In this document: in pieces, positions 2,113 through 58,657 of the stretch
Layout: every line of letters begins with the position of its first letter
Position numbering within the stretch: position 1 is the first letter of the stretch
IMG/VR virus record: IMGVR_UViG_3300045988_077137
Origin: a virus
Reading direction: 5' to 3' (one strand)
Length of the DNA stretch: 64,000 nucleotides
Translations under genes and position numbers: made by a program
The notes under the pieces: generated by a model
Database searches by the model: none
The model's input: only the letters and a program-made list of their open reading frames with translations
Told to the model about the DNA's origin: nothing

Positions 2113-2115
2113 CTT

Positions 2116-3063: not shown

Positions 3064-3223
3064 TATCTTTTCTTCTTTTGTATTTCAACCATAGTTTCAA
3101 CAACGTCTCCGAACAGTTTAACAGCGTTGAACGCATTCTTCCCTTTGCCCTCGTATTCCTTTTGAACCTTTGGATATCTCATCGGGTCGACGTGATGATG
3201 AATTCGGGGTGATGCTGGTGCTT

Positions 3224-11327: not shown

Positions 11328-11349
11328 ACCTGTTTCCTCCCTAATCATT

Positions 11350-11385
11350 GAGCACTTCCTCTGGGAGTGCTCTTTGTTTTTCTTC
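11350..11385. terminator. Hairpin terminator between convergent units
   Basis: GAGCACT-9 nt-AGTGCTC (11350-11372) followed by TTTGTTTTTCTT on the plus strand. Confidence 0.6.
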
Positions 11386-11390
11386 GAAAA

Positions 11391-11831: not shown

Positions 11832-11905
11832 TTAAAGGAATTTTCTGGCGAAAATCAATCGCAAAGCCACTGCGTCCACGTTATACATATATAAATTGAG
11901 AAGTC

Positions 11906-12358
11906 ATGAACAAAGAAGAGAAAAGAAACAAGCAACTTCTCGATATCCTCGAGAAGGACTTCGAGGAACTCTCCCCAGGAGAACTCCAAGTCATTCGTAA
12001 CGAAACTCGGAAGATATACGGTATCGAGGGGAAGATAGGAACAGGCATAATCCTGAATTCCTACTTGAATATGAAGCGAAAGTTCATTACCGAACTTGAA
12101 CAGGTTTTGGTATGCCCGAAAATGGCTGTTAAGGACTTCGGACCATTCGCTGGGCGGCAGGTTGTTACCAGCAAGATACCCGTTCCCACGTTTGACGGTC
12201 TTAACGGGGAGCCTGCAGGCATTTTCTATATTGATGGATACACTTATCTCCCCGTCCTATCTGTATCGTATTTAGACGACCAAACAGAGGTGATTTGCCT
12301 ATCTCCGGAAGGCTCGTTTTGTAGGATAACGACAAAGGATTTTGATTTCGAGATATAA
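11906..12358 (+). CDS. Hypothetical protein (inside the putative invertible segment)
   Basis: 150-aa ORF with no recombinase motifs. Confidence 0.5.
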   Translation: MNKEEKRNKQLLDILEKDFEELSPGELQVIRNETRKIYGIEGKIGTGIILNSYLNMKRKFITELEQVLVCPKMAVKDFGPFAGRQVVTSKIPVPTFDGLNGEPAGIFYIDGYTYLPVLSVSYLDDQTEVICLSPEGSFCRITTKDFDFEI

Positions 12359-12410
12359 ACCGCTAAATTTGCGGTGAAATTTCATTTAGTTATAACTAAT
12401 TTTAAGAATT

Positions 12411-13238: not shown

Positions 13239-13250
13239 TTTCAAATAAAA

Positions 13251-13275
13251 AGAGCGGAGTTTTCAGCTCCGCTCT
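13251..13275. terminator. Bidirectional hairpin terminator
   Basis: AGAGCGGAG-7 nt-CTCCGCTCT between convergent genes, with an A-run before it. Confidence 0.6.
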
Positions 13276-13325
13276 TCCCTGTCGTCAAACAATAAATCAA
13301 AATATGAAAACACAACAAAGAGAAT

Positions 13326-13601
13326 TCATTTTCCTCTGATGATAGTAGTATAACGGTCATAGATGGCATCCCAGTTCTTTTCGACAAGTTTGCATTTCTG
13401 TGTGAAAGACTTATCGTTGAAAGTGTTGATGTTTTGAAAGACTCCGGCTTTCAGTTCCGGATGCCACATCTTTAGGAAGATACCCTGTTCACTGATGAAG
13501 CCTATTTCCTCACCCTTGTAAACTAACTGTGCATATTCTGACGTGGGCATTCCGGCTCCACCCTTTACCGTTACTCGATTTATTTCAATAGGTGCTATCA
13601 T
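13326..13601 (-). CDS. Hypothetical protein
   Basis: 91-aa ORF. Weakly resembles the next ORF (YKGEEIGFI versus YQGERIGSV). Confidence 0.5.
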   Translation of the reverse strand: MIAPIEINRVTVKGGAGMPTSEYAQLVYKGEEIGFISEQGIFLKMWHPELKAGVFQNINTFNDKSFTQKCKLVEKNWDAIYDRYTTIIRGK

Positions 13602-13888
13602 GATTCCTTTTCTTTAAGTTGTGATTTGATTCGAAGATTGTAGTTATCCCATATCCATTGAGCGTGTTCCTTGACCCAGTTTACTGCATACCTGTGGTCT
13701 TGGGGTTCTTTTAGTCTCAAATAAACAGGTTTGGGGTCGCATATCAGTAATATACGAGTGTTCCCCTCAACCGAGCCTATACGTTCGCCCTGATAGTAAA
13801 TTGACGAGGTTTGAACGTCACCACCCGCACGTGCCAACTTTGACGGCTTCGGGTTCTTCTTTGATGTGAATTTTATCTTCTTTGCCAT
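13598..13888 (-). CDS. Hypothetical protein
   Basis: 96-aa ORF with a 4-nt overlap with the downstream ORF. Confidence 0.5.
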   Translation of the reverse strand: MAKKIKFTSKKNPKPSKLARAGGDVQTSSIYYQGERIGSVEGNTRILLICDPKPVYLRLKEPQDHRYAVNWVKEHAQWIWDNYNLRIKSQLKEKES

Positions 13889-13900
13889 AGTCCTAACTTA

Positions 13901-14203
13901 TTAATCGATGTACGATAAATATCTTTTGCAATCAGATTTAAGAACTTTCTTATTCAAACAGTATGTTCCATTGTAACGGTTCAACGGGAGTAGCCCACCA
14001 GATGCTATCTTGAAGTCGAGGTCAGATAGAGGCTCGTTGAATGTTCCGTTGACAACGCAGTAAAGTTCAGGATTGCAACAGTCATCAGATGTAGCATTAC
14101 GAACTTGGTATCTTTGATTACAGATAAACATAACATTTGATTCGTCATTGCATACTGTTAAGTAGTATTCTTTTCCGTCTAATTTTGAAATAACCTTTTT
14201 CAT
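13901..14203 (-). CDS. Hypothetical Cys-rich protein
   Basis: 100-aa ORF directly downstream of promoter cassette A. Confidence 0.5.
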   Translation of the reverse strand: MKKVISKLDGKEYYLTVCNDESNVMFICNQRYQVRNATSDDCCNPELYCVVNGTFNEPLSDLDFKIASGGLLPLNRYNGTYCLNKKVLKSDCKRYLSYID

Positions 14204-14220
14204 ATTTCTTGGTGTTTTAA

Positions 14221-14300
14221 GTTTGACAGTACAAAGATAATGGGAAGAAATGAGATTACAAAGAAAATCCCGGAATTTCTTCCGGGATTCTCAAAGATTT
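14221..14300 (-). promoter_or_regulatory. Promoter cassette copy A
   Basis: Minus-strand TATCTTTG -7 box (14232-14239), with a TTTG 19 nt upstream. Palindrome TCCCGGAATTTCTTCCGGGA. Lies 29 nt from ATG 14203. Confidence 0.65.
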
Positions 14301-35551: not shown

Positions 35552-36099
35552 TTACGAATATCGAACTGTTCCTGATACTCTCAATGTATCTCCCGGAGAT
35601 ATTGTTATAGTTGAAAATCTAACTTCTTGCTGAAAAGTGAATGTTCCCTTGACTAAAGTTTGTCCATTTAGCGTGATGTCAATACTTTCATTCTTTCCAG
35701 ATGAAATAATTAGGTTGCATTTGTTTGTCGTGAACGTCCGACTCCCTGTCCATTGAACTTCCCCAGATATCTGTTCAGTATTTTTCTCGCCTGAATTCAT
35801 TGGATACAGCCTTTCACACAAACTGATATATTCGCTTTCGTTGTTTGTATTTATCAGCCTTAAATAAAGTCTTGACGTTACCTGTTCATAAAGCAAATTG
35901 TTAAACTGAATAGAACCTGTTTTAGACGCTGTAAAACGTCCTTGAGCCTGACTAACTTCAATGGTTCTTGTCATCCCCCCCCCCCCGAAATGGTTATCGT
36001 GGTAGAGCGAGCATCACCATAATTGGCTCCTGCCTGAACGGTCACTTCCTGTGACCTCCCCCCAGAGTCTGGGGTGATTGTCAAAAAGTCTTTTTGCAT
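35552..36099 (-). CDS. BACON-like family paralog P3, reading frame broken at a G12 run
   Basis: ATG at 36099 opens MQKDFLTITPDSGGRSQEVTVQAGANYGDARSTTITIS, followed by G12. As written the frame reads GGA TGA. One extra G joins it to the listed ORF MTRTIEVSQAQGRF... (35552-35974). Confidence 0.7.
35975..35986. repeat. C12/G12 homopolymer in P3
   Basis: Counted directly. A further in-frame G6 lies at 36058-36063. Confidence 0.95.
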
Positions 36100-36129
36100 A
36101 ATCTTTGAAATTAAATTGTTAAACGAAAT

Positions 36130-36471
36130 TTATTTATGATTGCTTCGAAGCCTTATGTATTTCCACCACGCATAGTGTTTACGGGTCTTGAGATAGTCAG
36201 GGTTCTCATCATTATTGTGAGCCTCTTCCTCAAGACTGATATCGTGATATGCGCAGTTCTGTTTCTTGTGGAACAGCCTGATGAGTAGGTACTCAACCCC
36301 ATACCACAGGTAGAAGAACACCCAGAGCATCTCCTTCATTTGAGCCGTGTGTATCGACTCGTGCGTGATTGTTGACTCCGGTAACTGTTTACGCTTGGTA
36401 AACAGTATTCCGAAGAAGTTCAACGTATGATAATTCCCAAACGGGAACCATGTGTTATAAACTATTTTCAT
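36130..36471 (-). CDS. Hydrophobic protein with an HExxH motif
   Basis: 113 aa. THESIHTAQ suggests a possible Zn-peptidase-like site, followed by a hydrophobic stretch. Confidence 0.35.
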   Translation of the reverse strand: MKIVYNTWFPFGNYHTLNFFGILFTKRKQLPESTITHESIHTAQMKEMLWVFFYLWYGVEYLLIRLFHKKQNCAYHDISLEEEAHNNDENPDYLKTRKHYAWWKYIRLRSNHK

Positions 36472-38775: not shown

Positions 38776-40395
38776 CTACTTTTTATTTGGTTCATTATTT
38801 GCGGACATAGCACAAGACGTATTCAGGAACTGAATAGCGACTGAAACAGAGTTTTCCAGGGACACTCTTGACACTTTCGCAGGGTCAATGATTCCTGCCT
38901 CAAACATATCTTCTATCTTCTCAGTAACAGGGTTGAAGCCTTTCCACCACATCGGGTCGTCGTTGTTTGTCAGGTCAACTTCAATACGGGTTGCGTTCAC
39001 AGCAGCATTCTCACACAACTGATTGAACGGAGCCATCAACGCTTGAGCAACTACATTCCAACCGATAATGAAGTCAGGATGTTCTTCATGAAGTGAAGGC
39101 ATATTGCGTAGGTGGTCTGACGCTCTCAACTGAACCGTACCGCCTCCGGGAACGTATCCCTCTTCCAACGCTGCCCGAGTTGCGGCAATAGCATCGTCAA
39201 CACGGTCTTTTCTTTCCTTCATCTCTACCTCACTGTCCGCACCTACATAAACGACGGCTGCTCCCCCTGTAAGTTTCGAAATACGTTCACGATACTTCTC
39301 TTGGTCGTAAGAGTTCGTATTCTCCTCCATTAGATGTTTAATAGCCTCTACTCTGGTATTTATATCGGCTTCCGTACCAACGCCTCCTACGAGGATTGTA
39401 CGATTAGTAGAAACGACTGTACGTTCACACTCGCCCAGCCAGTCTGTACCGAGTTGGTCAAGCGGACGTCCAAACTCATCGCCTACCACCTTTGCGCCTA
39501 CCTTAACAGCCAAGTCCTCTATCATGTCCTTCTGGATTTGACCATATCCGGGAGCCTTTACGAAACAGGCTTTCAACCCGTTCTGCTGCTGAATGTTTGT
39601 CACGAGGAACTTGATAACGTCATTAGACGCATTAGGAGCAACGATAAGAACGCTGCGTTTCGCTGAATAAACTGTCTGAATGATAGGAAGGATTTCCTGG
39701 GGATAGTTGATGTTCTGTCCGAAGATGAGAATATACGGCTTATCAAGCACGCATTCCATACGCTCTGGGTCTGTAACGAAGTACGGGTTCACCAAGCCTT
39801 TCTCCCACTGAAAACCTGTGGTCACTTCGACTGTGGTTTCATTTCCCTTGCTGCTTTCCTCAACCGTAATCACTCCGTCGTTTCCTACCTTTCCGATAGC
39901 CTCCGAAATGATACAACCAACCTCCACATCACCGTTTGCGCTGATAGTGGCAATCTGATTTACACGGTCGAACTCGGTCTCACCAATTTCCTTCGCCATC
40001 GCTTTAATGAACGAAACGGCTTCCGAACGAGCAGCCTCCATTCCTTCTTTGAAACGCTGTGGATTCTTGACATTAGGAAGAACATTCATTCCCTCTTTGA
40101 TGAGCGCACGGGTGAGGATTGTGGCTGTGGTCGTACCGTCACCAGCCTCGTCACAGGTCTTTGCCGCAACGGTCTTAACAAGCGTTGCTCCCATACGTTT
40201 CATTGGGTCGTCGGTATCGTACGCACGGGCAACTGTTACACCATCTTTCGTGATGTGAGGAATGCCATACCCTTTGTCAATGATTACTGAATGTCCCTTC
40301 GGACCGAGAGTAGAAGATACTGCATTAGCGAGTTCATCAATTCCTTCGAAAAGAGCCTCTTGAGCAGATTTGTTGAATAAAATCTTTACATTCAT
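38776..40395 (-). CDS. groL: Chaperonin GroEL (Cpn60)
   Basis: 539 aa. LGPKGHSVIIDK, AKTCDEAGDGTTTATILTRAL and VGADSEVEMKERKDRVDDA are classic Cpn60 motifs. Confidence 0.95.
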   Translation of the reverse strand: MNVKILFNKSAQEALFEGIDELANAVSSTLGPKGHSVIIDKGYGIPHITKDGVTVARAYDTDDPMKRMGATLVKTVAAKTCDEAGDGTTTATILTRALIKEGMNVLPNVKNPQRFKEGMEAARSEAVSFIKAMAKEIGETEFDRVNQIATISANGDVEVGCIISEAIGKVGNDGVITVEESSKGNETTVEVTTGFQWEKGLVNPYFVTDPERMECVLDKPYILIFGQNINYPQEILPIIQTVYSAKRSVLIVAPNASNDVIKFLVTNIQQQNGLKACFVKAPGYGQIQKDMIEDLAVKVGAKVVGDEFGRPLDQLGTDWLGECERTVVSTNRTILVGGVGTEADINTRVEAIKHLMEENTNSYDQEKYRERISKLTGGAAVVYVGADSEVEMKERKDRVDDAIAATRAALEEGYVPGGGTVQLRASDHLRNMPSLHEEHPDFIIGWNVVAQALMAPFNQLCENAAVNATRIEVDLTNNDDPMWWKGFNPVTEKIEDMFEAGIIDPAKVSRVSLENSVSVAIQFLNTSCAMSANNEPNKK

Positions 40396-41306: not shown

Positions 41307-43655
41307 TTACTTTTTCAATCCTCTCATCTCCTCCAAGGAACACGTACCTCCGGCACAGGCTGTCGCAATTTCACTGCCAGCCTGTTTAAGCGGTTCTTCC
41401 CATACGATGTTGTCGTAGGAAACAGGCTTCATTCGACAGATGGCTTGCCACTTGTGGTATGCGTTTACGTGCTTCAAACAGTACGATGTCTTCTGACGGT
41501 CGCTTTCCATATACTTGTCGGCAAATGAATTGAAGCGACGCACCCAATCCAACCGTCTTTCAACACGTCGTTTCAGGTAGTCAATGACACAGTTCACGTC
41601 TGAGAAACAGATACCGTCAATGTCAACAAGGAAACGTCCGTCCTTAATATTCTCAACAACGAAGTCGGCTATCTGTTTGTCGTTGATTGTAAGCAACTGT
41701 GGAGCCAACCCCATCGCTGCGTTACAGGCTTCCCAAACATCTTTGAACACGTCATTCGCATCAACGATAAGACCGCTCGACAGAATTGCTCCTGCTCCGT
41801 AGCGTTCCGCCAACTCAACCTCGTCAAGAACTTCGGTGTACGGTGCTTGAGGATAGTCCAAATCACCGAATGATGATAACAGGCTGATACCACCAAACTG
41901 GTCACGATGTTCCCACAGGAACTCCCGTACTTCATCCCATTCATCTGGGCGAACTGTACAGGTATTTGACACGTTCATTCGAAGTTTCGGATTGTCAAGT
42001 GTAGAAGGATGAGTCAGGTTCGTACCGTACTCAATCCAGTTCTGTTTCGTTAAGAGAACATATTTCAGGAATTCGATTGCTGTCAGGTTCTGTTTCAACA
42101 ACGCTCCTTCGGGAAGTGTAACAGGGAAGGCGATAACCTTTTCACGGTCAGGAGCCCAAACGCTCGCTTCTACCATATCCGGATTGACACGTTCCCACTC
42201 TTGAACAGCCTGTTCAGTATCCGCAGCCTGAATGTGACGAATGTAGTGACGAGCGTGTCCGGCAGTTATTCCTGACAAGGTTCCAAGGAGTTGTGAACTG
42301 TTCCCAGACGGCTTCACAACTGTACACCGTGCAGCCTCGTTGATACCTATCATTCGTGCAATCTTCTTGTTGGTCTCTACAACGATTTGAGCACCACGCT
42401 TCTGTACTTCTGGGTCGAACAGGATAGCAGGGTTCTCACAGAGACCCGTAATGCCCACACCAATAAGAGCGTCCCGCTCCGCTATCAACTGTGACCATTT
42501 CTCAAGCACACGGAAATTCGTGTAACCAGCCTGCAACGTACAGATAGTAGAGGCTGCTTCACAGGCAGCATAGAAATCCTCAACTGTCTTTACCTTACCA
42601 CCATTGATTTCCGCAAGATTACAGAATCCCCAACCCGTATGATAATCACCGTTCTCGTCTTTGATTTGCGGGAACATACCTACCTCTCCACAGGGGTTGA
42701 ATACAAACCACGGAGAGTCGATGAATACAAATCCTGGCTCCCCATACAACTTGGTATTCTCGTAAATACTGTCAAACACTTCCTTCGGTGTATCAGGTAG
42801 GATGGCTGCTGAATTGTTACTCCGGCACAGTTCCGGCATCGTTGCTATCCAGTTACCTGTTTTGCACGCAGCCATTTCAGCATCGTCAGCGTCAAAGATA
42901 CTTATCATCGCTGAACGACGCACACCCCCTGTCACCACGCTGTTCGCACAGATACAGATTAGATAGTGGAGTTCAAACGGTCTCAATTTCCGTCCTTTGA
43001 TACGGGTAATGATGTGGTGACACTTCTCTATCGCCTGACGCAACGGTTCGGGTCCAGGAGCCTTAAATCCCCCTCTGATGTATGCACCTTTCGGGCGGAT
43101 TGCTGAATAGTCAAACTCGATGTCCGCACCACCATAATAGTAAGCGGTCATCATCTTACCAACAGCCTCTGCCCATCCCTCAATCGTATCAGGTATCACG
43201 AATTTCTCAGCCTGTTTTGAATTATCAAATCCTTTGGGTACAGGAAGTCTATCCGTGTGAACGTGCTGAACGCTGTAACCTGTCCCAGCACCACAGAGTA
43301 ACAGATACATGATTTCCTCGAATACCCGTACACGGTCAACGTAGGTAGAAGAACAGTTATAGAAGCGAGCGTGCTTCTCTAACATCAATTCTCCACCATA
43401 CTGTAACGCACGCTGGGCTCCCAATACACGTTGCTCGGAATACAGGCTGTATGCGTGAGCAAACATCTTACTGAACTCAGCCTCGTCTTCAGGCTTCACC
43501 ATACCGGAATAGCGTTTCAAGTGCATATCCATTACTCTGTTCACGGCTTCCTGCCATGTTTCCTTTTTCCCATCATGGGTTTGGGAATACTTGCTCAAAA
43601 ACACGTACTCCCCGACCACTGGTCGACTGTCCTTTTCAATCATGTTTCTCTTCAA
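41307..43655 (-). CDS. nrdJ: Ribonucleotide reductase, probably class II (B12-dependent)
   Basis: 782 aa. Active-site FNPCGEV, plus LLCGAGTGYSV and a C-terminal CAGGTC redox pair. No NrdB-like gene lies nearby. The class assignment is an inference. Confidence 0.7.
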   Translation of the reverse strand: MKRNMIEKDSRPVVGEYVFLSKYSQTHDGKKETWQEAVNRVMDMHLKRYSGMVKPEDEAEFSKMFAHAYSLYSEQRVLGAQRALQYGGELMLEKHARFYNCSSTYVDRVRVFEEIMYLLLCGAGTGYSVQHVHTDRLPVPKGFDNSKQAEKFVIPDTIEGWAEAVGKMMTAYYYGGADIEFDYSAIRPKGAYIRGGFKAPGPEPLRQAIEKCHHIITRIKGRKLRPFELHYLICICANSVVTGGVRRSAMISIFDADDAEMAACKTGNWIATMPELCRSNNSAAILPDTPKEVFDSIYENTKLYGEPGFVFIDSPWFVFNPCGEVGMFPQIKDENGDYHTGWGFCNLAEINGGKVKTVEDFYAACEAASTICTLQAGYTNFRVLEKWSQLIAERDALIGVGITGLCENPAILFDPEVQKRGAQIVVETNKKIARMIGINEAARCTVVKPSGNSSQLLGTLSGITAGHARHYIRHIQAADTEQAVQEWERVNPDMVEASVWAPDREKVIAFPVTLPEGALLKQNLTAIEFLKYVLLTKQNWIEYGTNLTHPSTLDNPKLRMNVSNTCTVRPDEWDEVREFLWEHRDQFGGISLLSSFGDLDYPQAPYTEVLDEVELAERYGAGAILSSGLIVDANDVFKDVWEACNAAMGLAPQLLTINDKQIADFVVENIKDGRFLVDIDGICFSDVNCVIDYLKRRVERRLDWVRRFNSFADKYMESDRQKTSYCLKHVNAYHKWQAICRMKPVSYDNIVWEEPLKQAGSEIATACAGGTCSLEEMRGLKK

Positions 43656-48157: not shown

Positions 48158-48899
48158 AACGATTCCTCCTTTTCGCTTCAGACATTTTCTTTCTTGTTTC
48201 CTCGGAATGTTTCTTTCCAAAGAAATGATTTTTCTCTCCTTTATGTGATTCTGAAAGTTTCTTTTTCCATTCATCTGAAAACTCTTTCCGCTTCACCCCT
48301 TTCTTAGATTCACTAATTTTTCTACGATGTTCTTTCGAAAGAGTTTCCCCACGAAATGCTCCAATATGACCAGAATTTGCTTTAGAAATCTTTTGTTTAG
48401 CTTCTTCTGAAAGATGTTTACCTTTCATTGAAGGAAGCCTTCCTTTATTTGATTCGGATATTTTTCTCCTTGATTCTTCAGAATGTTTGTGTCCCCAATA
48501 TTTAGCAAAGTGAATCTTTGCAGCCTCCCTTGCTTTTGCACGACGTTCTTCTGTCCATACAGTTCCAACCGCTCCATCCCCACCATCCGTTGAATTGTAT
48601 CCAAATTCTTTAGTTTGAAGCCTTTTAATTAGACGCTCCTCAATGTAACAAAGTTTTGCTTTCAGAGCCTGTCTATTGGGTGCCGATACCTGAATAATTT
48701 CCTCAATCGTAAAGTTCTCAACACCGTACTTCCTCATGGCTGAATAAAGCCTGTAAGGAACTCCACGTTTCGCAGCCTGTTTATGTTCTTTGAATCGTTT
48801 CTCAATCGACTTCACTGTCTGACCAATGTAAAGTTTCCCATTAGCCAGACAGCATATGCAATAAATATGTCCTATTCCATCACAATATCTCATTTTCAA
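48141..48899 (-). CDS. Free-standing GIY-YIG homing endonuclease with five NUMOD3-like repeats
   Basis: 252 aa. HIYCICCLANGKLYIGQT...RFKEHK...GYNSTDGGDG, then repeats such as HSEESRRKISESNKG. Confidence 0.9.
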   Translation of the reverse strand: MKMRYCDGIGHIYCICCLANGKLYIGQTVKSIEKRFKEHKQAAKRGVPYRLYSAMRKYGVENFTIEEIIQVSAPNRQALKAKLCYIEERLIKRLQTKEFGYNSTDGGDGAVGTVWTEERRAKAREAAKIHFAKYWGHKHSEESRRKISESNKGRLPSMKGKHLSEEAKQKISKANSGHIGAFRGETLSKEHRRKISESKKGVKRKEFSDEWKKKLSESHKGEKNHFFGKKHSEETRKKMSEAKRRNRYEILV

Positions 48900-50850
48900 A
48901 ATCTTCTCTCGTTACGATACGAAGTCCTCTTTGTTTAGCGGTCTTCATCTTAGAAGAAGTTGAGTTGATGTCGGCTACCACAAGAACTGTGCATTCTTTG
49001 GTCACACCGTTCAACACCACGTGTCCCCGAGCCTGAAGAGCCTTTTCGAGTTCTTTATTCCGGAACCCTGTCATGCAGACAAACATTTGTTCAACTCCGT
49101 CAGGAGTCTCAACCTTTGGCGACTGTACATAAGTAATAACGACTCTTCTGTCTTTTCCCCTCGAAAGATACGTTTTTAGACCTTTTACGAACGTCAAAGC
49201 AAGCACCTCACCTATTCCCGGAATAAGTTCACATTCGTGCTTTAGAGTGACCGCAGACTCCGCAGTGAGCGCATAACTATTTGGGTCACGCAGCCTCTCA
49301 ACCGTTTCCCCGTTCAAACCGTCTAAGATTTTCTGACAGGTCGCCTCAGCAATCTTTCCGTCAAATACATTTATGGCTGTTAGGTAACGAGCCAACGGTA
49401 CTCCGGCAAGAACCTTTTCAATCTGACTTGAAACGGTCTTCCCCTTTGACTTCCCTAACAGGTTCTGGAACTCCGCAACGTGTGACTCAAGAATTGTGTC
49501 TATCGTCTTATAGCCGTGTCCATACAAACGACGTATCGTAGGCTCTTCAAACTGTTCGCAACCCATCGTGCGGAAGAAATACACCATACCAGAGATTACT
49601 CTTTCCTTGCACGACTCATTTGAGCATACAAGGTCAACGTGCGTTTCGTTCCATTTAAGCGGTTCACCACAGGACGGACAGATAACAAGGTCATCCATCA
49701 TATCGGTGTACGCATTCTCGTTGTACTCAATCGTCTTCAAGTGTTTAGGGATAACGTCTCCTCCACGTGTTACTTCGATGAACGCTCCCTCACAGATATG
49801 CTGGTCAATCAGGTAGGCTGCATTATACGCTGTGGCTCGGGATACGGTTGCTCCGTTAATCTCAACGGGTTCGATGATGATTACAGGGTTCAGAACACCT
49901 GTCTTCCCTATTCCCTTTTCTATACTGATAACCTTTGTCTGGTACACGTCACACCACTCTTCCTTCTTGAACGCAATAGCATAGGCGGGATTTCCGTTAG
50001 GAAGCCGTCCCAGTTGTTCACGGACGCTTTCTTCATCGACTTCTATCACCACGCCATCAATCTTGTATTCAGCATCAAACCTGTCATGAAGTTCCTCATC
50101 AAGCAACAGGTTCATTTCCTCATCGTCGAGTTCCATTATCTCTTCAATCAAGAAACTGACATACGGAGTAACATTATGGAACGTTCTTTTCAATTCTTCG
50201 AGAACGCTTGACTTGTCGCCTGTAAGGTCAGAGCCATAACGCACGAAGTCCACGTTTGCCATGAAGCGGTTGTTCCAGCCGTCCGGAGAGTTGAATATTC
50301 CGGCAACCATATTACGAGCGTTCTTATAGGCGAAGTCGGCTTGGTTGTCCTTGAGGTGGGCAAAGGTCTTCTTCTTCATGATAGCCTCGCCCCACGTGTG
50401 CATAAGGTGTGGTTCCGGATGCTCGCCCTCGCCATTGAACATACGGTCGAAGTGTTTCGTTGACAACTGCCCTTCTACACCATCACCACGAGTCCACGCT
50501 CTCTTATCGTCTTCATCAACGACAAGGCTTATTCCGTCAAATTTAGGAGTGGCGACAATCTCCTTACAACCTGCAGCAAACATCTTCTGTAACCATTTGC
50601 GGAAGTCCTTGATTGTCTTGATTTTTTCGAGGCTGTACATAGGGACAGGCAACGGCTCCATACGGTCGGTGGCTTCCTCTACGATACCTTTCTTGAAGAA
50701 CTCGTCCTCCGGACTGTTTACTCTCAGAGTTTCAACCATATGGTCGTAATCAACATCTGATATTTGAGGATTGCCCTCACGATAAGCCTTATTGAGAGCC
50801 ACCAACTCGGCTCTCAGGCTGTTAATCTTTTCTTGACTTAATTTTGCCAT
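48880..50850 (-). CDS. ligA: NAD-dependent DNA ligase
   Basis: 656 aa. Adenylation motif EYKIDGV, Zn finger CPSCGEPLKWNETHVDLVCSNESC, HhH region, and a C-terminal BRCT-like FVCMTGFRNKELE. Confidence 0.9.
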   Translation of the reverse strand: MAKLSQEKINSLRAELVALNKAYREGNPQISDVDYDHMVETLRVNSPEDEFFKKGIVEEATDRMEPLPVPMYSLEKIKTIKDFRKWLQKMFAAGCKEIVATPKFDGISLVVDEDDKRAWTRGDGVEGQLSTKHFDRMFNGEGEHPEPHLMHTWGEAIMKKKTFAHLKDNQADFAYKNARNMVAGIFNSPDGWNNRFMANVDFVRYGSDLTGDKSSVLEELKRTFHNVTPYVSFLIEEIMELDDEEMNLLLDEELHDRFDAEYKIDGVVIEVDEESVREQLGRLPNGNPAYAIAFKKEEWCDVYQTKVISIEKGIGKTGVLNPVIIIEPVEINGATVSRATAYNAAYLIDQHICEGAFIEVTRGGDVIPKHLKTIEYNENAYTDMMDDLVICPSCGEPLKWNETHVDLVCSNESCKERVISGMVYFFRTMGCEQFEEPTIRRLYGHGYKTIDTILESHVAEFQNLLGKSKGKTVSSQIEKVLAGVPLARYLTAINVFDGKIAEATCQKILDGLNGETVERLRDPNSYALTAESAVTLKHECELIPGIGEVLALTFVKGLKTYLSRGKDRRVVITYVQSPKVETPDGVEQMFVCMTGFRNKELEKALQARGHVVLNGVTKECTVLVVADINSTSSKMKTAKQRGLRIVTREDFENEIL

Positions 50851-51931: not shown

Positions 51932-52270
51932 CTAACCTTGGTTCAAGGACACTTTGGTAATCCAGAAGTAATTATCCGTTCCAAACTTGAAATCCTCTTT
52001 GTGAACTGACTGAATTCGCTCACGAAGCCTCTGTTCCGTCATTCCACTGGCGAAGTTATGCCCGATGTTTGCGAGTAGCGGTGTAACCTCTTGAGCGTCC
52101 CGCACCTCATTGTAGCGACATTCACGTGTCTTCAACCGTACTTCCGGAGCAACGTAGGCTCGGAACTCACCCATGATTTCTACCACGAGTATATTACAGT
52201 CACAATTCATTACAAGTCCCCGACAAGCGTCAAGGAACTCTTTCTTAGCAGCGTTATTTTCCATAACCAA
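51932..52270 (-). CDS. Hypothetical protein, paralog of 53297-53617
   Basis: 112 aa. Shares LVMNC.C.IL......GE.R......V.LKTRECRYNEVRDAQ....L..N.GHNFA.GMTEQ.L.ER.QS.HKEDFKFGTDNY.WIT with the transposon-borne copy. Confidence 0.6.
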   Translation of the reverse strand: MVMENNAAKKEFLDACRGLVMNCDCNILVVEIMGEFRAYVAPEVRLKTRECRYNEVRDAQEVTPLLANIGHNFASGMTEQRLRERIQSVHKEDFKFGTDNYFWITKVSLNQG

Positions 52271-52598
52271 TCATTTTTTCTATTGCATTCTTCTTTCGTT
52301 GTTCTTTCTCATCAGCAGCACCACGCTTCAGTTCCCTGTCAAACCGCTGGCGCAGTATCTCCTTCTTTTTGTCGTCAGGCAGTCCCTTAAAGACGCCAAC
52401 GCTAAACTCTGGTATAGTGCTCTCAACCTCTACGAAAACCATCTGTTCGCGACAGTTAGAACACTCATACGGCTTCCCCACGATAGTAGGAACCATCTTC
52501 TTGAGTTCTTTACTGTATTTCATCACGTATTTTCCCGGAGTAAACGCCACGCCATGAAGTTCACAGGCTTCATTCGGGCAGCACAATACATATTTCAT
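52254..52598 (-). CDS. Zinc-ribbon-like hypothetical protein
   Basis: 114 aa with CCPNEAC...CSNC Cys pairs. Confidence 0.5.
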   Translation of the reverse strand: MKYVLCCPNEACELHGVAFTPGKYVMKYSKELKKMVPTIVGKPYECSNCREQMVFVEVESTIPEFSVGVFKGLPDDKKKEILRQRFDRELKRGAADEKEQRKKNAIEKMIGYGK

Positions 52599-53092
52599 AG
52601 ATAATGTCTCCTTCCATATTCAGCGATTAATAAACTGTCAGTCAAGTTGTCATCGGCTTTCGTGCAGTTCTCCGTCCGACGTAAATCCTGTCGAGGGAAC
52701 AACCGCTTCGCTGCAAGCACTGACATCACTTTCTTGTCGGGGTTCGGCTTGATGCCCTCGTACATTTCTTTCTGCCACTTCTTAGGAGTCACCAGCACAA
52801 TCCTCAAACCACACATGATGAACCCCATACGGAGCGCATAACATACTCCCCCGAAAGTAAACGTAGCACCCGCAGCGGAACGTGGTAGAGCGTGAACATC
52901 CTCTATCACGACAACCGTGTTATTGATGTCACACTCTTCCGATATCTGAATAATCAATTCTGACAGTTCATGCAGGTCAAGTTCCTTCCCTACCTTTGGC
53001 ATCGGATAGTGCTTGATACCTGTACTTTTCATCACCGTGATGAACCCCTGTTTTCCTGGGTCTACTCCGATAACTGTTTGTTTCTTTTCCAT
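52595..53092 (-). CDS. ruvC: RuvC-like Holliday junction resolvase
   Basis: 165 aa. VIGVDPGKQG, VVVIEDV and KADDNLTDSLLIAEY place the RNase H-fold acidic residues as in RuvC. Confidence 0.7.
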   Translation of the reverse strand: MEKKQTVIGVDPGKQGFITVMKSTGIKHYPMPKVGKELDLHELSELIIQISEECDINNTVVVIEDVHALPRSAAGATFTFGGVCYALRMGFIMCGLRIVLVTPKKWQKEMYEGIKPNPDKKVMSVLAAKRLFPRQDLRRTENCTKADDNLTDSLLIAEYGRRHYL

Positions 53093-53096
53093 ACTA

Positions 53097-53104
53097 TTCT
53101 ATAT
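53097..53104. repeat. Target-site duplication, left copy (TTCTATAT)
   Basis: Identical 8-mer in direct orientation, immediately outside both terminal repeats. Confidence 0.8.
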
Positions 53105-53191
53105 GGTACTGATATACATATCTACACTGGAAAATCTTAGAAAGGCTGGAGTCGGGAAATCCCCGAACCAGTCTTTTCTATTTTATTAACG
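53105..53191. repeat. Left 87-bp terminal inverted repeat
   Basis: Exact reverse complement of 56573-56659, checked base by base. The flanking bases mismatch on both sides. Confidence 0.95.
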
Positions 53192-53296
53192 GTTAATCTC
53201 TACGTTCTACTCAATCATAATCAATTCCTAAGACATCATACAGACTGCCCGACTTTTACGTTGTTAAATCAGTATTAATCATTAAAATTACTGGAT

Positions 53297-53617
53297 ATGA
53301 AATTAGATGAAAACATTTTGAAGACCTGCCAAGGACTTGTAATGAACTGTCATTGTAAGATTTTAATCCTTGATGTATTAGGTGAACATCGTGTATTCCT
53401 TGTGAATGACGTACACCTTAAAACTCGTGAATGTCGTTATAACGAAGTTCGTGATGCGCAGGACATCACTACTCTCGTATTGAATGTCGGTCACAATTTT
53501 GCTAATGGCATGACCGAGCAGACCTTACTTGAACGCACTCAATCTATCCACAAGGAGGATTTCAAGTTTGGAACGGACAATTATATGTGGATTACGCGTA
53601 TGGATTTAAATCGTTGA
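53297..53617 (+). CDS. Cargo ORF, paralog of phage gene 51932-52270
   Basis: 106 aa, roughly two-thirds identical by eye to the resident copy. Confidence 0.6.
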   Translation: MKLDENILKTCQGLVMNCHCKILILDVLGEHRVFLVNDVHLKTRECRYNEVRDAQDITTLVLNVGHNFANGMTEQTLLERTQSIHKEDFKFGTDNYMWITRMDLNR

Positions 53618-53621
53618 GAAT

Positions 53622-53804
53622 ATGAAGCAATCCGATGAAAAGCCAACAGTTGAAAAATGTAAAACAGAACTTGAGGAAATTGCAAAAGAAATGGGGCTTC
53701 CTATTGAAGACCCCAAAGTACCAGTTGAATGGTGTAAACGTGGTGGGTGGTATGATGATGAAGTCGCAGAAAAATTGATTACCCCTTTGTATTTCAGGAA
53801 ATAA
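53622..53804 (+). CDS. Cargo small hypothetical protein
   Basis: 60-aa ORF. Confidence 0.4.
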   Translation: MKQSDEKPTVEKCKTELEEIAKEMGLPIEDPKVPVEWCKRGGWYDDEVAEKLITPLYFRK

Positions 53805-54038
53805 TCAATATTCTATTTGAATAGAATTATCTTCATATTTAATCATATCATCATCAGTGCCAAGTTCAACATCTGAAAGATTTAAAACAACTCGCTTTTT
53901 ATCTTTCTGGGTAGCATCTATTAATTCGCAATTGACATCTGTTACCTTGTAAATTTTAGATGGGCATACTTTTAATTTGACGTATGTCCCTCCCGTAATT
54001 TGTTCTTTCATAATTATTTCCCTATTAGTCTTGTTCAA
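53805..54038 (-). CDS. Cargo small hypothetical protein
   Basis: 77-aa ORF. Confidence 0.4.
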   Translation of the reverse strand: MNKTNREIIMKEQITGGTYVKLKVCPSKIYKVTDVNCELIDATQKDKKRVVLNLSDVELGTDDDMIKYEDNSIQIEY

Positions 54039-54302
54039 ATATAGGGAATTTACTACTTTTGCGCAAGCCTTTCGAGGTTAAACATTGTTGGAAAATAAAG
54101 GAAAGTGCCTTAATACTCGAAGAATCGCCAATTCAATAAAAGTACAAACGAGGCACAGAGGGCAACCTATATCAAGTGGGCTGCTCATCTGTGTGTTTGT
54201 ACAAGCGTTTGGCGATGCTTTCGAGTTTACACAGGTGGCAGTCCACTTTCTTTATTATATAACGTTCTCATAGACTGTCGGGAACTCGAAAAATTCGCCA
54301 TT

Positions 54303-54827
54303 ATGAAAAAGTATTTCGTTCTACCAATTATTGTAGCAGTTTTAGCTATCGGATTGCAATCGTGTTCTAAGCCAAATCCTGAATCTATGTCTGAAATCGT
54401 ACTTGAAACTATTAGTATCTATAAATCCGGTGGAGATTACTTAGGTTACATTGAAAGCCTTGAAAAGAAATATAAATGTGTTGATTATAAGGATTCCTTA
54501 AAGTTGGAAATTTCTTCAGACACAAAGATTGTTCGTAAAATGTTCACATCAGAAGATGAAAAGGTTAAAGTTCGGTTGACAGGAACAGAAGACAGTGATT
54601 GGCGTGACTTGGAGTTCATAATTTATCCTCTTACTGAAACATCTGAAAGTTATTCTGTGGACAAATGCTACAAGGAAATCAAGGAAAAGGCTAAGGAACA
54701 CAATGTCTTCTATTATTCCCTGTATCTTTATAGATACGAAGTGCCTAATTCTGTTGGAAAAATCAAGGTAGATGATGTGGAAACTCCTTTTTTCAAAGGA
54801 CTTAGATTTTATAACAAAAAACAATAG
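54303..54827 (+). CDS. Cargo lipoprotein
   Basis: 174 aa. MKKYFVLPIIVAVLAIGLQSC is a signal peptide plus lipobox. Hairpin AGCCGGA-6 nt-TCCGGCT plus a T-run lies downstream (54877-54905). Confidence 0.6.
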   Translation: MKKYFVLPIIVAVLAIGLQSCSKPNPESMSEIVLETISIYKSGGDYLGYIESLEKKYKCVDYKDSLKLEISSDTKIVRKMFTSEDEKVKVRLTGTEDSDWRDLEFIIYPLTETSESYSVDKCYKEIKEKAKEHNVFYYSLYLYRYEVPNSVGKIKVDDVETPFFKGLRFYNKKQ

Positions 54828-54834
54828 TACCGTT

Positions 54835-55206
54835 TTATTGCTTTAGCATCCTGTTAAAACTATTCAAATCAGCCGGACTAAGTTCCGGCTTTTTTATTAG
54901 TCCGTTTTTAGAGTCTATAAGCAATGGCAATGCCTCTGCGAGTAACATCTTAAAGCCTCGTTTGGTTTTCGCTTTAGACGATTTGTAGAGGTGATTTATT
55001 ACGGTAAACTTGTAACCTTTACCGAGCCAGTCCCAAGTGAATACATATTGTTGTGGAATGTTCTCAATAGACAGGTCATTGAAATATGTATCAATAATAA
55101 GTTGTACACCCTCTGTCCTTATGGCTACTGCTTCATCGAACATTTCAATATAGGGGACAATGATTGTTCCAAGTTTAAATTCTGTTGATTCTTTTCTTCT
55201 TTTCAT
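54835..55206 (-). CDS. Cargo hypothetical protein abutting the transposase gene
   Basis: 123 aa. ATG at 55206 is 1 nt after the transposase stop. Confidence 0.5.
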   Translation of the reverse strand: MKRRKESTEFKLGTIIVPYIEMFDEAVAIRTEGVQLIIDTYFNDLSIENIPQQYVFTWDWLGKGYKFTVINHLYKSSKAKTKRGFKMLLAEALPLLIDSKNGLIKKPELSPADLNSFNRMLKQ

Positions 55207-55207
55207 C

Positions 55208-56155
55208 TTAAGCCGCTGATTTTCTGATTTGCTTGTATGTATAACGTGTGTCAGCGCAGCAGAGGAAGCAGTTAAATCGGTCTGAATTGCTGATGTCCCT
55301 CAGATTGTACCTATACACGAACTCATCAACGTATTTCTGTAAATACTTTTTAAGCAGAGTTCTGTATGTCCCTTTGACCATACGCTTGAAATGCGTCCAA
55401 GCACCTTCAATTCTATTAGTCGTTATGCTGTCATAACTATATAGTTTCTTACTGTGGTCTACATAGTAACGTTCATAGCTTTTTCCGATTTGATTGTAGG
55501 CATCGTTTTCATCTGTGTAAATAATAGCGTTGGGATGTACAAATTCTCTGATAAATGCAGAAAGGGTGTTGGCTTTGGTGTCAGGTGTTACCCGTGCATT
55601 CATCAGATTTTCCCGTTGTATCATTCCAACGACAGGTGCTTTATCCTTATGTGAACGTCCCTGTGAATGAGGCACTTTCTTGTCCCAATGACGATTACCG
55701 TTTCTTCCACCAACAAGGGTTTCGTCTATTTCAACAGCTTCTTCTAAGAAGTTCTCATTGGCGAGACGCATTGCGTGACGTATTTTATGCAACATATACC
55801 ATGCTGTCTTTTGCGTGACTTCTATATCGCTTGCAAGTTGGTAGGAGGAAAGACCTGTTTTGTGATTGGTTACGAGCCAAATGGCAATAAACCATTTACG
55901 TAAACTAATTTTTGTCTTTTCAAACATGGTTCCAGTACGGACGGTAAAGTTCTTACCTGTATTCTTGCAGCGATATTTACCGCTTTTCAATTTGTAGACC
56001 TTTGAAATTTTGTCAAATGGCGAAACGGGTTTGCCGTGCCAATTTATAGCTTCAAGATGTTTGATACAGGCTTCTTCCGTAGGAAATAATTCGTAAAGAG
56101 CCATGATTGATTTAGCATTAAGTTTGAATGGGTCTTTCATAAGGCTGTCCTCCAA
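55208..56155 (-). CDS. IS1595-family (ISXO2-like) DDE transposase
   Basis: 315 aa with an N-terminal Zn-finger/HTH region. VEIDETLVGG, IIYTDENDAY, SITTNRIEGAWTHFKRMVKGTYR and YVDEFVYRYN are typical of IS1595 transposases. Confidence 0.9.
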   Translation of the reverse strand: MEDSLMKDPFKLNAKSIMALYELFPTEEACIKHLEAINWHGKPVSPFDKISKVYKLKSGKYRCKNTGKNFTVRTGTMFEKTKISLRKWFIAIWLVTNHKTGLSSYQLASDIEVTQKTAWYMLHKIRHAMRLANENFLEEAVEIDETLVGGRNGNRHWDKKVPHSQGRSHKDKAPVVGMIQRENLMNARVTPDTKANTLSAFIREFVHPNAIIYTDENDAYNQIGKSYERYYVDHSKKLYSYDSITTNRIEGAWTHFKRMVKGTYRTLLKKYLQKYVDEFVYRYNLRDISNSDRFNCFLCCADTRYTYKQIRKSAA

Positions 56156-56572
56156 ATTTTAATGATGTTACAATTTACAAAAATTGATTGATTCAACAAT
56201 GAGTTCACGGAGAAAATCTTGATAGAAATCTGATAACCTCCTGTGCATATAACGAAAAAGTTGAGGACGGAGTAACTCAATTTACGGTTAAATGATGTGA
56301 AGATGATGGAGGAAAGATACGTTATACAATAAAATAGCCTCTCCGTGGTGTGGAAAGGCTATCAAACTAAATTATTTGCTTAATTCAATATTCATATTCG
56401 AATATTTGAAACTTTGAAATCATTTCAAGAAGTTCGTTTGCTTCTTCTATTGATAGTTCTTCAAACATTTTCGGCACCTCCTTTCACACCGTGAAGATAC
56501 GAAGAATAACCAAGAAGAGCAAATAACAAAATAGAGCCTTTCTTAACGATTGGCTCTATTCTATTTGGAAAA

Positions 56573-56659
56573 CGTTAATAAAATAGAAAAGACTGGTTCG
56601 GGGATTTCCCGACTCCAGCCTTTCTAAGATTTTCCAGTGTAGATATGTATATCAGTACC
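56573..56659. repeat. Right 87-bp terminal inverted repeat
   Basis: Supplies the last 11 sense codons plus the stop of the rad50-like ORF, and a terminator-like hairpin. Confidence 0.95.
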
Positions 56660-58657
56660 TTCTATATAACTGTAACCGTTTTCCTTCACGACGGTGAGAG
56701 TGGTTACACCAGCACGAATATTCATGACGTGACTGATTACATATACAGGATGATGAACGTCGCTCATTGATTCAAGTAGAAGAGCCAAGCCCAACGGGTC
56801 TGTGCCCTCAAGAACCTCATCAATCATTAGGAAGTGAAGTCCTCCCCATTGGTTCGTTCCGTTAATCATTTCCTGAAATGCTTGTATCAGAGCCATTTCA
56901 ATTCTTGCTCTCTCGCCTCCGCTAAACGACCAGAATGATTTATATTCGCCCTCGCCATTGATGACTGATACAGTTATCTCCTCCTTGATTTTCCCTTTCG
57001 CATTTCGCTTGAACCCGTCTATTGATAGGCGAAGTTCTGACCGCTGCTTTTGTAAGGACATATTCGCGAAGTTCTGAATTATCCGTAACTGCTCACAGGC
57101 GAGGCTCATCTTGAATTCCTTGAAACGCAATCCCCACTGTACCATGTCTGATACCTGTTTCTCGCACTCTCCGTATTCCTTGTTTGCCTTTTCGAGTTTC
57201 TTTTTCGTCAGGGCAACAAGACCTTCCAGTTCGGCTTCTTTGGTTTCCATTTCAGCCTGTTCAGCCTTTTCAAGTTGTTCAACCAACTGTTCGCTCTCAC
57301 TGTTACAACGTGATTGAATCCCTTCTTGATGCTTGATATCTTCTTGGTAGGAGGATATCATTTGGTTGCTTCGGGTTATCTCCCCACGGATTTTTGTTAT
57401 CTCTGCTTGAACCTCACGAATGGCTCTGACTGTACCCTGTTCCTGAACACGTATCTTCATGAACTTGTCGTCGTACTTTTTCACTCGTTCCTCAAATGAG
57501 TTAAGTTCTTCCAACGCTGTTTTCGCAAGGTTTTCCTGGGTCTCGGCTTCCTTCTTCTGGCTTTCAATTTTCTTCCGAGTGGTAGGAACATCAACCGTTT
57601 CATCTGATGTCACGAACTCCGTTCCACACTTCGGACACTTTACAGTCCCTTTCAGGATAGCCGTGAGGCGGTTGGCTTCGGCAGTGTACTGTGAGGACAG
57701 TTCCTGTGCTGCTTTACGCTTCTTCCTCGCTGCCTCTACCTTTGTATCAGTCGAAGAACGTTCTTTCGTTAGAGAGTCATATTGAGCCTTATAGTCAATC
57801 GCTTCTAATCCCTCTAACTTCTTAGAGGCTTCAGTGACTTTCTTCTGGTTGTCCTTGATACTCTGTTCAGCCAACTTGATAGCCGTCCGGGAATTCTCAA
57901 TCTTCTTTTCCGCTCCGTCGTACTCCTGTATGACAGCGTCAATTCGTTCGTTTATACGCTCTATAAGTGATTGTCGTTCCTCCTCAAGATTACGTTCTCG
58001 CTCCTCAGCCAACTGTGTCTCATAGACACCCAATTCACCCTCTATCTTTTGAACCTTTCCCAAGGCAACAGCCTTCTTTTCTTCCAACGGCTTAATCTTC
58101 TCTTTGATTACGCTGTCAGAGTCGTCTAACTGTTCAGCCTTAATGAAGCGATTTATCAACGACAGTTTGTCGGAGTTGGATGACGAAACGAATGACTTGA
58201 AATTCTCTTTGTTAAGGATATAGAAACTCTTCAGGTCTTCCGAGGATATACCTATCCAATTCAAGATGTAAGCGTTCCCGTCATTGACGGTTGCTACCTG
58301 TACCGAACCCTCTTCCTCATTAATCATGAGTTCCAATGACGCTGAACCTTTCTGTCTCAGGGTTCTATGTATATTCAGCGTTTCTTTCCGTATCGGGCAG
58401 TAGATGTCAAGCCAGATGTCCGCCTCTTCTTCACCCCACAAGATTAAGTCCCTGTCAAGTGTTTGTTTCTTGAGCGAGTTAGCAAGGATTGCATACGCAA
58501 TCCCTGCTTCCATCGTACTCTTCCCTGCTCCGTTCGTTTCCTTTGACTCTATCTCCGTCAGGTTCTTTCCCTTGATTAAGACAGGCTCATTCACGAACTT
58601 ATGCTTCAGTTCCTTGAATGACAGGAAATTCTTCAAACGCAAATAGGTGAGTTCCAT
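56624..58657 (-). CDS. sbcC: Rad50/SbcC-like recombination ATPase (T4 gp46-like)
   Basis: 677 aa. Walker A NGAGKST, a long coiled coil with a CPKCG zinc hook, signature SGGERARIE, and Walker B LMIDEV. Confidence 0.9.
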   Translation of the reverse strand: MELTYLRLKNFLSFKELKHKFVNEPVLIKGKNLTEIESKETNGAGKSTMEAGIAYAILANSLKKQTLDRDLILWGEEEADIWLDIYCPIRKETLNIHRTLRQKGSASLELMINEEEGSVQVATVNDGNAYILNWIGISSEDLKSFYILNKENFKSFVSSSNSDKLSLINRFIKAEQLDDSDSVIKEKIKPLEEKKAVALGKVQKIEGELGVYETQLAEERERNLEEERQSLIERINERIDAVIQEYDGAEKKIENSRTAIKLAEQSIKDNQKKVTEASKKLEGLEAIDYKAQYDSLTKERSSTDTKVEAARKKRKAAQELSSQYTAEANRLTAILKGTVKCPKCGTEFVTSDETVDVPTTRKKIESQKKEAETQENLAKTALEELNSFEERVKKYDDKFMKIRVQEQGTVRAIREVQAEITKIRGEITRSNQMISSYQEDIKHQEGIQSRCNSESEQLVEQLEKAEQAEMETKEAELEGLVALTKKKLEKANKEYGECEKQVSDMVQWGLRFKEFKMSLACEQLRIIQNFANMSLQKQRSELRLSIDGFKRNAKGKIKEEITVSVINGEGEYKSFWSFSGGERARIEMALIQAFQEMINGTNQWGGLHFLMIDEVLEGTDPLGLALLLESMSDVHHPVYVISHVMNIRAGVTTLTVVKENGYSYIEGTDIHIYTGKS
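56660..56667. repeat. Target-site duplication, right copy (TTCTATAT)
   Basis: Same as 53097-53104. Confidence 0.8.

Follow-up and report, generated by a model that had tools for sequence, protein, structure and literature searches.

The viral DNA deposited as IMG/VR record IMGVR_UViG_3300045988_077137 (64,000 nucleotides (nt), here termed the window) was analysed around a 3555-bp element at 53105–56659, which lies within phage DNA. The segment 53105–53191 is the exact reverse complement of 56573–56659 over 87 nt, and the adjoining bases mismatch on both sides. Directly outside both 87-bp arms stands the same 8-mer, TTCTATAT, read directly at 53097–53104 (left target-site duplication) and at 56660–56667 (right target-site duplication). 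The 32-nt terminal pattern, with at most three mismatches allowed, was found at two places in the window, namely the two tips, compared with none expected from shuffles, and no further element remnants were detected in the window. The G+C content of the element was 36.6%, compared with approximately 45% in the flanks. A transposase gene and five further open reading frames (ORFs) are carried between the repeats. It is very probable that 53105–56659 represents a single, intact and active "transporter insertion sequence (IS)" of the IS1595 family from human-gut Bacteroidales. This copy would have transposed very recently into the region of the 1-nt gap that separates the sbcC/rad50-like gene from ruvC in a Bacteroidales phage of about 100 kb.

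The insertion was evaluated via its predicted empty site. Removal of the element together with one copy of TTCTATAT gave the minus-strand junction ...AACGGTTACAGTTATATAGAATAGTATGGAAAAGAAA..., in which the SbcC/Rad50-like ORF ends in ...YIE-TAG and the ATG of RuvC follows 1 nt later. The predicted 33-nt junction was matched exactly in six IMG/VR viral contigs, all from sibling phages. The alignments of these siblings to the window break at 53104 and restart at 56660, the 8-mer being common to both pieces, and TTCTATAT is single-copy at the empty site in all six. They were 97–98% identical to the window in the flanks; one of them, L018, was far more divergent elsewhere and had the same empty site unchanged. 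The filled junction did not occur elsewhere in IMG/VR or in the metagenome collection. Nothing was found that contradicts the insertion itself, and the sequence comparisons establish both the insertion and the duplication of an AT-rich 8-mer target. An assembly artefact was weighed against these data, in which phage and bacterial reads were joined through the repeat by the metagenome assembler and the molecule is not real. Family contigs are frequently interrupted within the element (L003, L004, L005 and L091 begin or terminate there), which indicates that the repeat is troublesome for assemblers. However, a chimera needs an erroneous join precisely at each tip of the element and, in addition, a duplicated 8-mer that is single-copy in six relatives, and it was rejected on these grounds; moreover, the length and AT-richness of the duplication match those of 29 other genuine insertions. 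The probability of such an artefact is considered minimal.

The gene at 55208–56155 (minus strand) encodes a DDE transposase of the IS1595 family. Its likely true start is the ATG at 56140, which gives 310 amino acids (aa), the length at which the protein is called in other contigs. The protein matched Pfam PF12762 (DDE_Tnp_IS1595) with an E-value of 2.8e-38 and 131.7 bits (cut-off 27) over profile positions 2–153 of 153, and NCBIfam NF033547 (IS1595 family transposase) with 3.8e-58 and 196.9 bits (cut-off 75). In an alignment with 11 homologues (53–73% identity), D144, N247, E250 and K257 were invariant and D215 was nearly so, the third catalytic residue being N247 or E250. The N-terminal zinc ribbon (PF12760) scored E = 5e-5 and 23.6 bits against a cut-off of 25.4, and the usual Cys/His pattern was partly visible. 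Both tips begin with GGTACTG..., which is invariant across the family, and the NCBI names of the transposase homologues are generic ("IS1595 family transposase"). According to its transposase, termini, duplication and passenger genes, the element belongs to the transporter IS type of the IS1595 family. The empty sites lack the entire 3555 bp, the six-gene unit occurs at many sites, and the cargo differs between copies with the same ends. In the proposed mechanism, the transposase, with D144, D215, N247/E250 and K257, would bind the GG... termini of approximately 28–32 nt. An 8-bp staggered cut would be made in AT-rich DNA, the element would be joined there, and gap repair would then produce the duplication.

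A composite or nested structure was also considered, i.e., a simple IS with short repeats inside a larger outer-repeat unit, or two miniature elements flanking captured DNA. The original prediction had raised a nested shorter IS as a point to check, and two deletion derivatives of about 950 bp (953 and 992 bp; L007 and L034), which retain the two ends together with a portion of the transposase gene, are in keeping with such a structure. However, no inverted repeats were found around the transposase beyond chance-level matches of 14–25 nt, and in all 32 distinct complete elements compared for anatomy the transposase occurred only together with the outer ends. The repeat is present only twice in the window, and the duplications flank the outer ends. 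The nested IS was rejected because neither inner repeats nor a second IS was found, and an arrangement of this kind is regarded as very improbable. A compound transposon was rejected as well, since there is only one transposase gene and the repeat is present only as the two 87-bp ends. Members of the Tn3 family are recognised by a Tn3-type transposase, a resolvase, repeats of about 38 bp and a 5-bp duplication. A Tn3-family unit transposon was rejected because the sole transposase is of the IS1595 type, no resolvase match was obtained, and the duplication is 8 bp rather than 5 bp.

Other copies were sought with the terminal 26-mer in viral, genome and metagenome collections. It was located in five viral contigs or records, in ten Bacteroidales genomes (Bacteroides, Phocaeicola, Paraprevotella, Alistipes and others) and in more than 119 metagenome contigs. 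Identical 8-bp duplications flanked 30 of the 35 complete repeat pairs, which enclose elements of 953–6090 bp, and the 28 distinct target sites were 91% A+T. Four contigs (L027 at 55–4379, L030, L062 and L144) carry otherwise full-length elements with different 8-mers at the two ends, and these unlike 8-mers fit recombination between copies or adjacent rearrangements after insertion. Over 3503 nt, contig L091 and the element were 100% identical; beyond this stretch the contig passes into unrelated DNA. GH28 and heparinase II/III proteins are encoded in this flank, and the sequence of one of them is exactly that of WP_132140918.1 from Phocaeicola dorei; in other words, the sequence comparison establishes an identical copy in a host chromosome. 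The same six-gene element was found at many unrelated chromosomal sites, one of them inside a susD gene, and a sister variant of 4325 bp lies inside the brxC gene of a BREX (bacteriophage exclusion) system in L023. As a separate observation, the chromosomal copies that interrupt brxC (L023 7032–15039) and a susD-like gene (L156 7485–12682) each have their own flanks. Insertions of the family in such genes suggest that the transposon may switch off phage-defence and glycan-uptake genes. The only megablast hit among phage GenBank records was an unannotated 4.2-kb record that contains part of a related element, and the element had no match among the PLSDB plasmids. The element lives mainly in bacterial chromosomes and is active now. 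The variant carried by the window is not rare, since thousands of occurrences of it are present in gut Bacteroidales data. The identical chromosomal copy and the many chromosomal sites indicate that a common host transposon was acquired or exchanged by the phage.

The original prediction, which was made from the window alone, agreed with most of these results. The perfect 87-bp inverted repeat with mismatching flanks, the 8-bp duplication, the IS1595 transposase at 55208–56155, the higher AT content of the element and the five ORFs besides the transposase gene were all found as described. The clean empty site that it had predicted was recovered as the exact junction in six viral contigs. It had named, as one finding that would overturn the insertion, a native origin of the 87-bp sequence in the 3' end of the rad50/sbcC gene; the sequence is not part of that end, and empty alleles exist. 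The further copies of the repeat that it had proposed to look for were found, each with its own 8-bp duplication. The event had been called recent, and the perfection of the repeats had been taken as a sign of this; the recency stands, but a long repeat is also a family-wide feature. The word "unusual" applies to the location in a phage and not to the element, which is abundant in Bacteroidales chromosomes and belongs to a passenger-carrying type of IS1595 member that was already described.

The anatomy of the family was derived from the 32 distinct complete elements. All full-length copies carry the transposase, o123 and o106, with exchangeable slots between them, an architecture of core plus slots that is established by the aligned sequences. 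An optional slot outside o106 holds DUF2806 and other genes. Slot 1, after o106, holds a BACON-domain protein in most copies. In the window it holds o60 (53622–53804, plus strand), a 60-aa passenger ORF that was shared with only 3 of the 32 elements and had no family match, and a small passenger ORF, o77/o68 (53805–54011, minus strand), which is 68 aa long from the ATG at 54011 and is called at 68 aa in other contigs. The motif TATATTTG is located upstream of o68 at 54043–54036 (minus strand). Slot 2 holds differing secreted proteins or lipoproteins. The 174-aa predicted lipoprotein of the window (54303–54827, plus strand), with a signal peptide and then a Cys in ...LQSCSK, was present in no other of the 32 elements and had no family match in Pfam, PHROG, NCBIfam or PADLOC. 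An identical protein is recorded as WP_178666865.1, with the annotation "hypothetical protein [Bacteroidales]", and occurs on at least 999 contigs. A terminator-like hairpin with a T-run follows the lipoprotein gene at 54871–54896 (plus strand) according to a sequence scan. The cargo recognised by Pfam across the family was limited to BACON, DUF6242 and DUF2806.

The core accessory ORF o123 (54835–55206, minus strand; 123 aa) abuts the transposase stop codon and was present in 29 of the 32 elements. Its homologues were found only beside this transposase and were all annotated "hypothetical". No family match was obtained for o123, and its AlphaFold model (predicted local distance difference test (pLDDT) score 58.7) was too poor for a fold search. 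A short variable segment lies between the transposase and the right repeat. In the window, the sequence scan placed in this right-hand slot (56333–56469, minus strand) a 26-aa ORF (56389–56469) after AAAGGAGGTG, followed by a terminator-like hairpin (56363–56333). The sequence of the 26-aa ORF is MFEELSIEEANELLEMISKFQIFEYEY, and the preceding AAAGGAGGTG is Shine-Dalgarno-like, a type of sequence that is atypical for Bacteroidetes. The 246-bp segment 56327–56572 was 100% identical in L091 and about 84% identical in four other loci, and it had no match in the remaining loci.

The 87-bp repeat was resolved into two parts. The left terminus proper, GGTACTGATATACATATCTACACTGGAAAATC (53105–53136, plus strand), comprises the approximately 28–32 nt shared by every family copy and presumably serves as the binding end for the transposase. 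The first 26 nt were invariant in more than 150 ends from the viral, genome and metagenome collections; conservation stopped at about nt 28–32, and subfamily-specific modules began from there. With the terminator-like module included, the repeats of the family are about 77–90 nt long. The module of the left repeat (53138–53187, plus strand) is an inward-facing subterminal hairpin with a T-run, which resembles an intrinsic terminator by its fold. The hairpin occupies 53138–53180 and is followed by TCTTTTCTATTTTATT; the fold of 53105–53200 (plus strand) had a free energy of −25.5 kcal/mol and z = −2.9, and the outward-reading strand of the same repeat had z = −1.3. A simple terminator scanner missed this hairpin because its stem has an internal loop. 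In the right 87-bp repeat (56573–56659, minus strand), this terminus and inward-facing hairpin recur. The sequence inside the terminus differs between subfamilies, but in most types it again forms a hairpin with a T-run, and at least five unrelated modules of this kind were found at that position. The window-type hairpin ranged from −23.5 to −27.7 kcal/mol, the L009/L051 type was a perfect 13-bp stem followed by TTTTT, and three further types were seen. Hence, the 87-bp repeat may be read as a short transposase-binding terminus joined to an inward-facing putative terminator that shields the element from outside transcription. Such a hairpin and T-run would insulate the element against read-through from flanking genes.

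A structured 5' leader RNA of about 240 nt was predicted from conservation and folding at 54062–54302 (plus strand), upstream of the slot-2 secreted-protein gene. Divergent −7 motifs of the Bacteroidetes type (TAnnTTTG) lie at 54036–54061 and represent putative promoters. The motif at 54054–54061 (plus strand) faces the leader and cargo and was conserved in the alignment of family copies, and that at 54043–54036 (minus strand) faces o68. The leader was 82–89% conserved in all copies although the neighbouring cargo differs, and its minimum free energy was −75.7 kcal/mol (z = −4.6). Across 26 variants, which belong to only three sequence types or lineages, a long hairpin was 93.8% paired, compared with at most 48% when the pairing was slid, with 22 compensatory cells. 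The 3' strand of this hairpin alternatively pairs with the segment before the ATG (90.3%, compared with at most 52% when slid; 12 compensatory cells). RNAalifold, applied to the 26-sequence alignment, preferred a set of helices different from that of the single-sequence fold. The leader had no Rfam match at E ≤ 1, and the only Rfam match over the element at this threshold was a sub-threshold one to rseX, which is explained by the terminator after the lipoprotein gene. The two alternative pairings suggest a switch controlling cargo translation, and the leader is a candidate cis-regulatory switch in which one pairing covers the start-codon region. The passenger lipoprotein would then be expressed from the element's own promoter via this structured leader.

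The core gene o106 (53297–53617, plus strand; 106 aa) was found in 30 of the 32 distinct elements, which include every full-length one. The original prediction had described it as a copy of a phage gene. A resident phage paralogue of 112 aa does lie at 51932–52270 (minus strand), in the same putative transcription unit as ruvC. However, o106 was only 62–65% identical to this resident gene, so it is not a locally made copy but part of the conserved core of the transposon family. The phage orthologues occupy a fixed place, in the order Mre11-like, RecA, SbcC, RuvC, a 113-aa protein and then o106, and were 57–67% identical to each other. The transposon copies nested among the phage copies in a neighbour-joining tree of this 106-aa protein, which carried no support values. 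Because the phage copies are syntenic and divergent and the transposon copies are nested among them, o106 most likely derives from this family of about 100-kb phages and then became a fixed part of the transposon. The AlphaFold model of o106 had a pLDDT of 85, and its fold neighbours in BFVD were uncharacterised gut-phage proteins only. No significant match was obtained in Pfam, PHROG, NCBIfam or PADLOC, and a DpdD match at E = 0.006 was not used. Against the PDB, the profile search returned nothing, and the best hit of the fold search had an E-value of 0.076 and a template modelling (TM) score of 0.35. Furthermore, the commonest slot-1 cargo (F4, BACON) showed 60% identity over about 200 aa with the phage ORF at 12411–13238 (plus strand), which has a BACON-type N-terminus. 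This likeness indicates that genes other than o106 have also passed between the phage family and the transposon. A weaker, fragmentary resemblance to the BACON cargo was also seen at 35600–36120 (minus strand) of the window.

The window was identified as phage DNA by its genes for a portal protein, GroEL, ribonucleotide reductase, helicases, NAD-dependent ligase, RecA, SbcC and RuvC, and sibling contigs reach 97–105 kb. Among these genes, a full-length GroEL-type chaperonin (38776–40395, minus strand; PHROG 5725, 4.5e-145), ribonucleotide reductase (41307–43655, minus strand) and NAD-dependent DNA ligase (48880–50850, minus strand) were noted. The target lies inside a tightly packed row of minus-strand genes. 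The SbcC/Rad50-like gene (56624–58657, minus strand; PHROG 77, SbcC-like, 5.4e-57) stands on one side, and its frame now extends 11 codons into the right repeat (...NGYSYIE-GTDIHIYTGKS and a stop), compared with the native end ...YIE-TAG. The RuvC-like resolvase gene (52595–53092, minus strand; PHROG 1770, 6e-23) is now separated from sbcC by the element. The added 3.56 kb amounts to about 3.6% of a genome of about 100 kb, which is within the packaging tolerance of 105–106% quoted in PMC3429520.

The orientation of the element bears on the expression of these genes. Transcripts from sbcC would meet the right repeat in the terminating orientation and would stop there, and the genes near the left end all point away from ruvC. 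No minus-strand TAnnTTTG was found in the phage DNA at 62553–51911, the sole one in this interval (54043) being inside the element, and no strict TAnnTTTG match for an outward promoter was found at the left end. A sigma-70 promoter scan is inapplicable to Bacteroidetes and was not used. Given the terminating orientation of the repeat and the lack of a minus-strand −7 motif in this stretch of phage DNA, ruvC, the 114-aa gene and the 112-aa resident paralogue of o106 would probably be cut off from their upstream promoter. This polar effect on ruvC and the two genes downstream of it is a weak inference.

Several points weigh against this account of the element and its effects. As far as the sequences show, the last jump may have gone either way, from chromosome to phage or from phage to chromosome. 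The terminator role of the hairpins is proposed from sequence and folding only, and the end of the L001-type subfamily folds poorly (z = 0.39). Moreover, TAnnTTTG occurs at chance frequency in the region (10 observed and about 10.6 expected), so the operon boundaries and the polar effect are weakly supported.

The phage family was examined for further traces of the element. In L005, which is 97–99% identical to the window, a 66-nt solo repeat replaces 35608–36466 of the window (about 860 bp), the corresponding region of L005 being 1307–1534. The lost stretch comprises most of a 140-aa and a 113-aa ORF, and the breakpoint lies within codon 12 of the latter, where a short stretch is similar to the hairpin of the repeat. 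This solo repeat looks like an older insertion followed by a deletion. Contig L086 carries o106, o123 and the transposase at a different site (10956–14260), and its phage-like genes have 50–83% protein identity to the window at 20.7–27 kb. In L004, which is 93–97% identical to L086 and whose phage-like genes likewise have 50–83% protein identity to those of the window, a solo end of 185 nt (2693–2877) was found beside an HU-like gene, at yet another site. Taken together, the copies in the window and L086 and the solo-end scars in L005 and L004 indicate that the phage family was hit repeatedly, in at least four independent events. Two of these four events have decayed, which indicates that such insertions are usually lost.

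These repeated hits allow a further-reaching account, in which the transposon is a hitchhiker adapted to phages. The family would use phages of about 100 kb as a regular shuttle between Bacteroidales hosts and would keep phage-derived genes (o106 and the BACON cargo) for persistence or benefit, for example with o106 replacing the silenced paralogue. Several observations are in line with this: the at least four independent events, the presence of o106 in every full-length element and its nesting within a phage gene family with syntenic orthologues of 57–67% identity, the likeness of the F4 cargo to the phage ORF at 12411–13238, and the position of the insertion upstream of the resident o106 paralogue in the same apparent transcription unit. 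However, nearly all copies are chromosomal and lie in ordinary bacterial contexts, and the filled allele of this site was found nowhere else, compared with six empty alleles. The two decayed scars suggest loss rather than retention, o106 had no function match, and the nesting was taken from a neighbour-joining tree of a short protein. A phage-adapted hitchhiker of this kind is considered unlikely. In its fullest form, the account is a long-term partnership. The transposon would repeatedly enter phages, would have taken o106 and the BACON cargo from them, and would ride between host species with a surface-protein cargo controlled by its own inward terminators and riboswitch-like leader, silencing the phage o106-type gene here and supplying its own. 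This partnership is likewise doubtful; if true, it would be a natural system with a phage as a real vector for a cargo transposon.

The filled phage allele, the six empty siblings and the identical Phocaeicola dorei copy make the direction, frequency and fitness cost of phage-borne transposition directly testable. Through the identical chromosomal copy, the uncultured phage is also linked to a Phocaeicola/Bacteroides host. Furthermore, members of the transposon family are highly abundant in the human gut, disrupt susD and BREX genes and move genes for secreted proteins and lipoproteins, so the family's anatomy (short termini, terminator modules, cargo slots and leader RNA) matters for the annotation of Bacteroidales genomes. 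The advance is a modest one, since an IS that carries passengers was a known concept and neither the transposase family nor the duplication is new. The new elements are the documented jump into a phage, the three-gene core with a member that most likely came from a phage, the terminator-like modules at the ends and the predicted leader RNA; the element may already be named.

The hallmarks of the IS1595 family are GG termini and 8-bp duplications, and the zinc ribbon is absent only in the IS1016 group (PMC8101967). Its passenger-carrying members are the original "transporter IS" (PMC3129680, citing Siguier, Gagnevin & Chandler 2009; also PMC8101967). The ISfinder groups ISPna2+ and ISNwi1+ are described as such passenger-gene members (Siguier 2009 as cited, PMC3129680, PMC8101967). 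The element resembles a transporter IS in its DDE_Tnp_IS1595 domain with a putative zinc-ribbon-like N-terminus, its GG repeats, its 8-bp duplication, the unrelated passengers within one repeat pair and a size in the range of the family. It appears to differ in the three-gene core (transposase, o123 and the putatively phage-derived o106), the two or three cargo slots, the candidate leader RNA and the repeats of about 77–90 nt with terminator-like modules. ISApl4, from the IS1016 group of the IS1595 family, likewise makes A/T-rich 8-bp duplications, has many copies and is active in its host (PMC12561309). Unlike the element, ISApl4 is 712 bp long, has 14-bp repeats, encodes only a transposase and carries cargo only as a two-copy pseudo-compound transposon (PMC12561309).

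Two known associations of IS with phages were also compared. In IScream phages, as here, a bacterial IS family is associated with human-gut phages and was found in metagenomes (PMC12823448). In those phages, however, IS30 copies bracket a whole prophage as integration machinery co-opted by gut phages (PMC12823448), whereas the present insertion is a complete transposon inside the phage genome; alleles lacking it occur, and nothing indicates that it mobilises the phage. Phages are regarded as poor carriers of transposable elements (PMC3429520). In the survey by Leclercq and co-workers, as summarised in PMC3429520, 92% of phages were free of IS, and no transposon carried by an active phage was known in 2012. 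The present case is similar to the phage IS of that survey in being an IS insertion in a phage genome. It differs from them in that the element carries passengers, has an identical chromosomal copy and belongs to a family that has repeatedly hit the same phage family.

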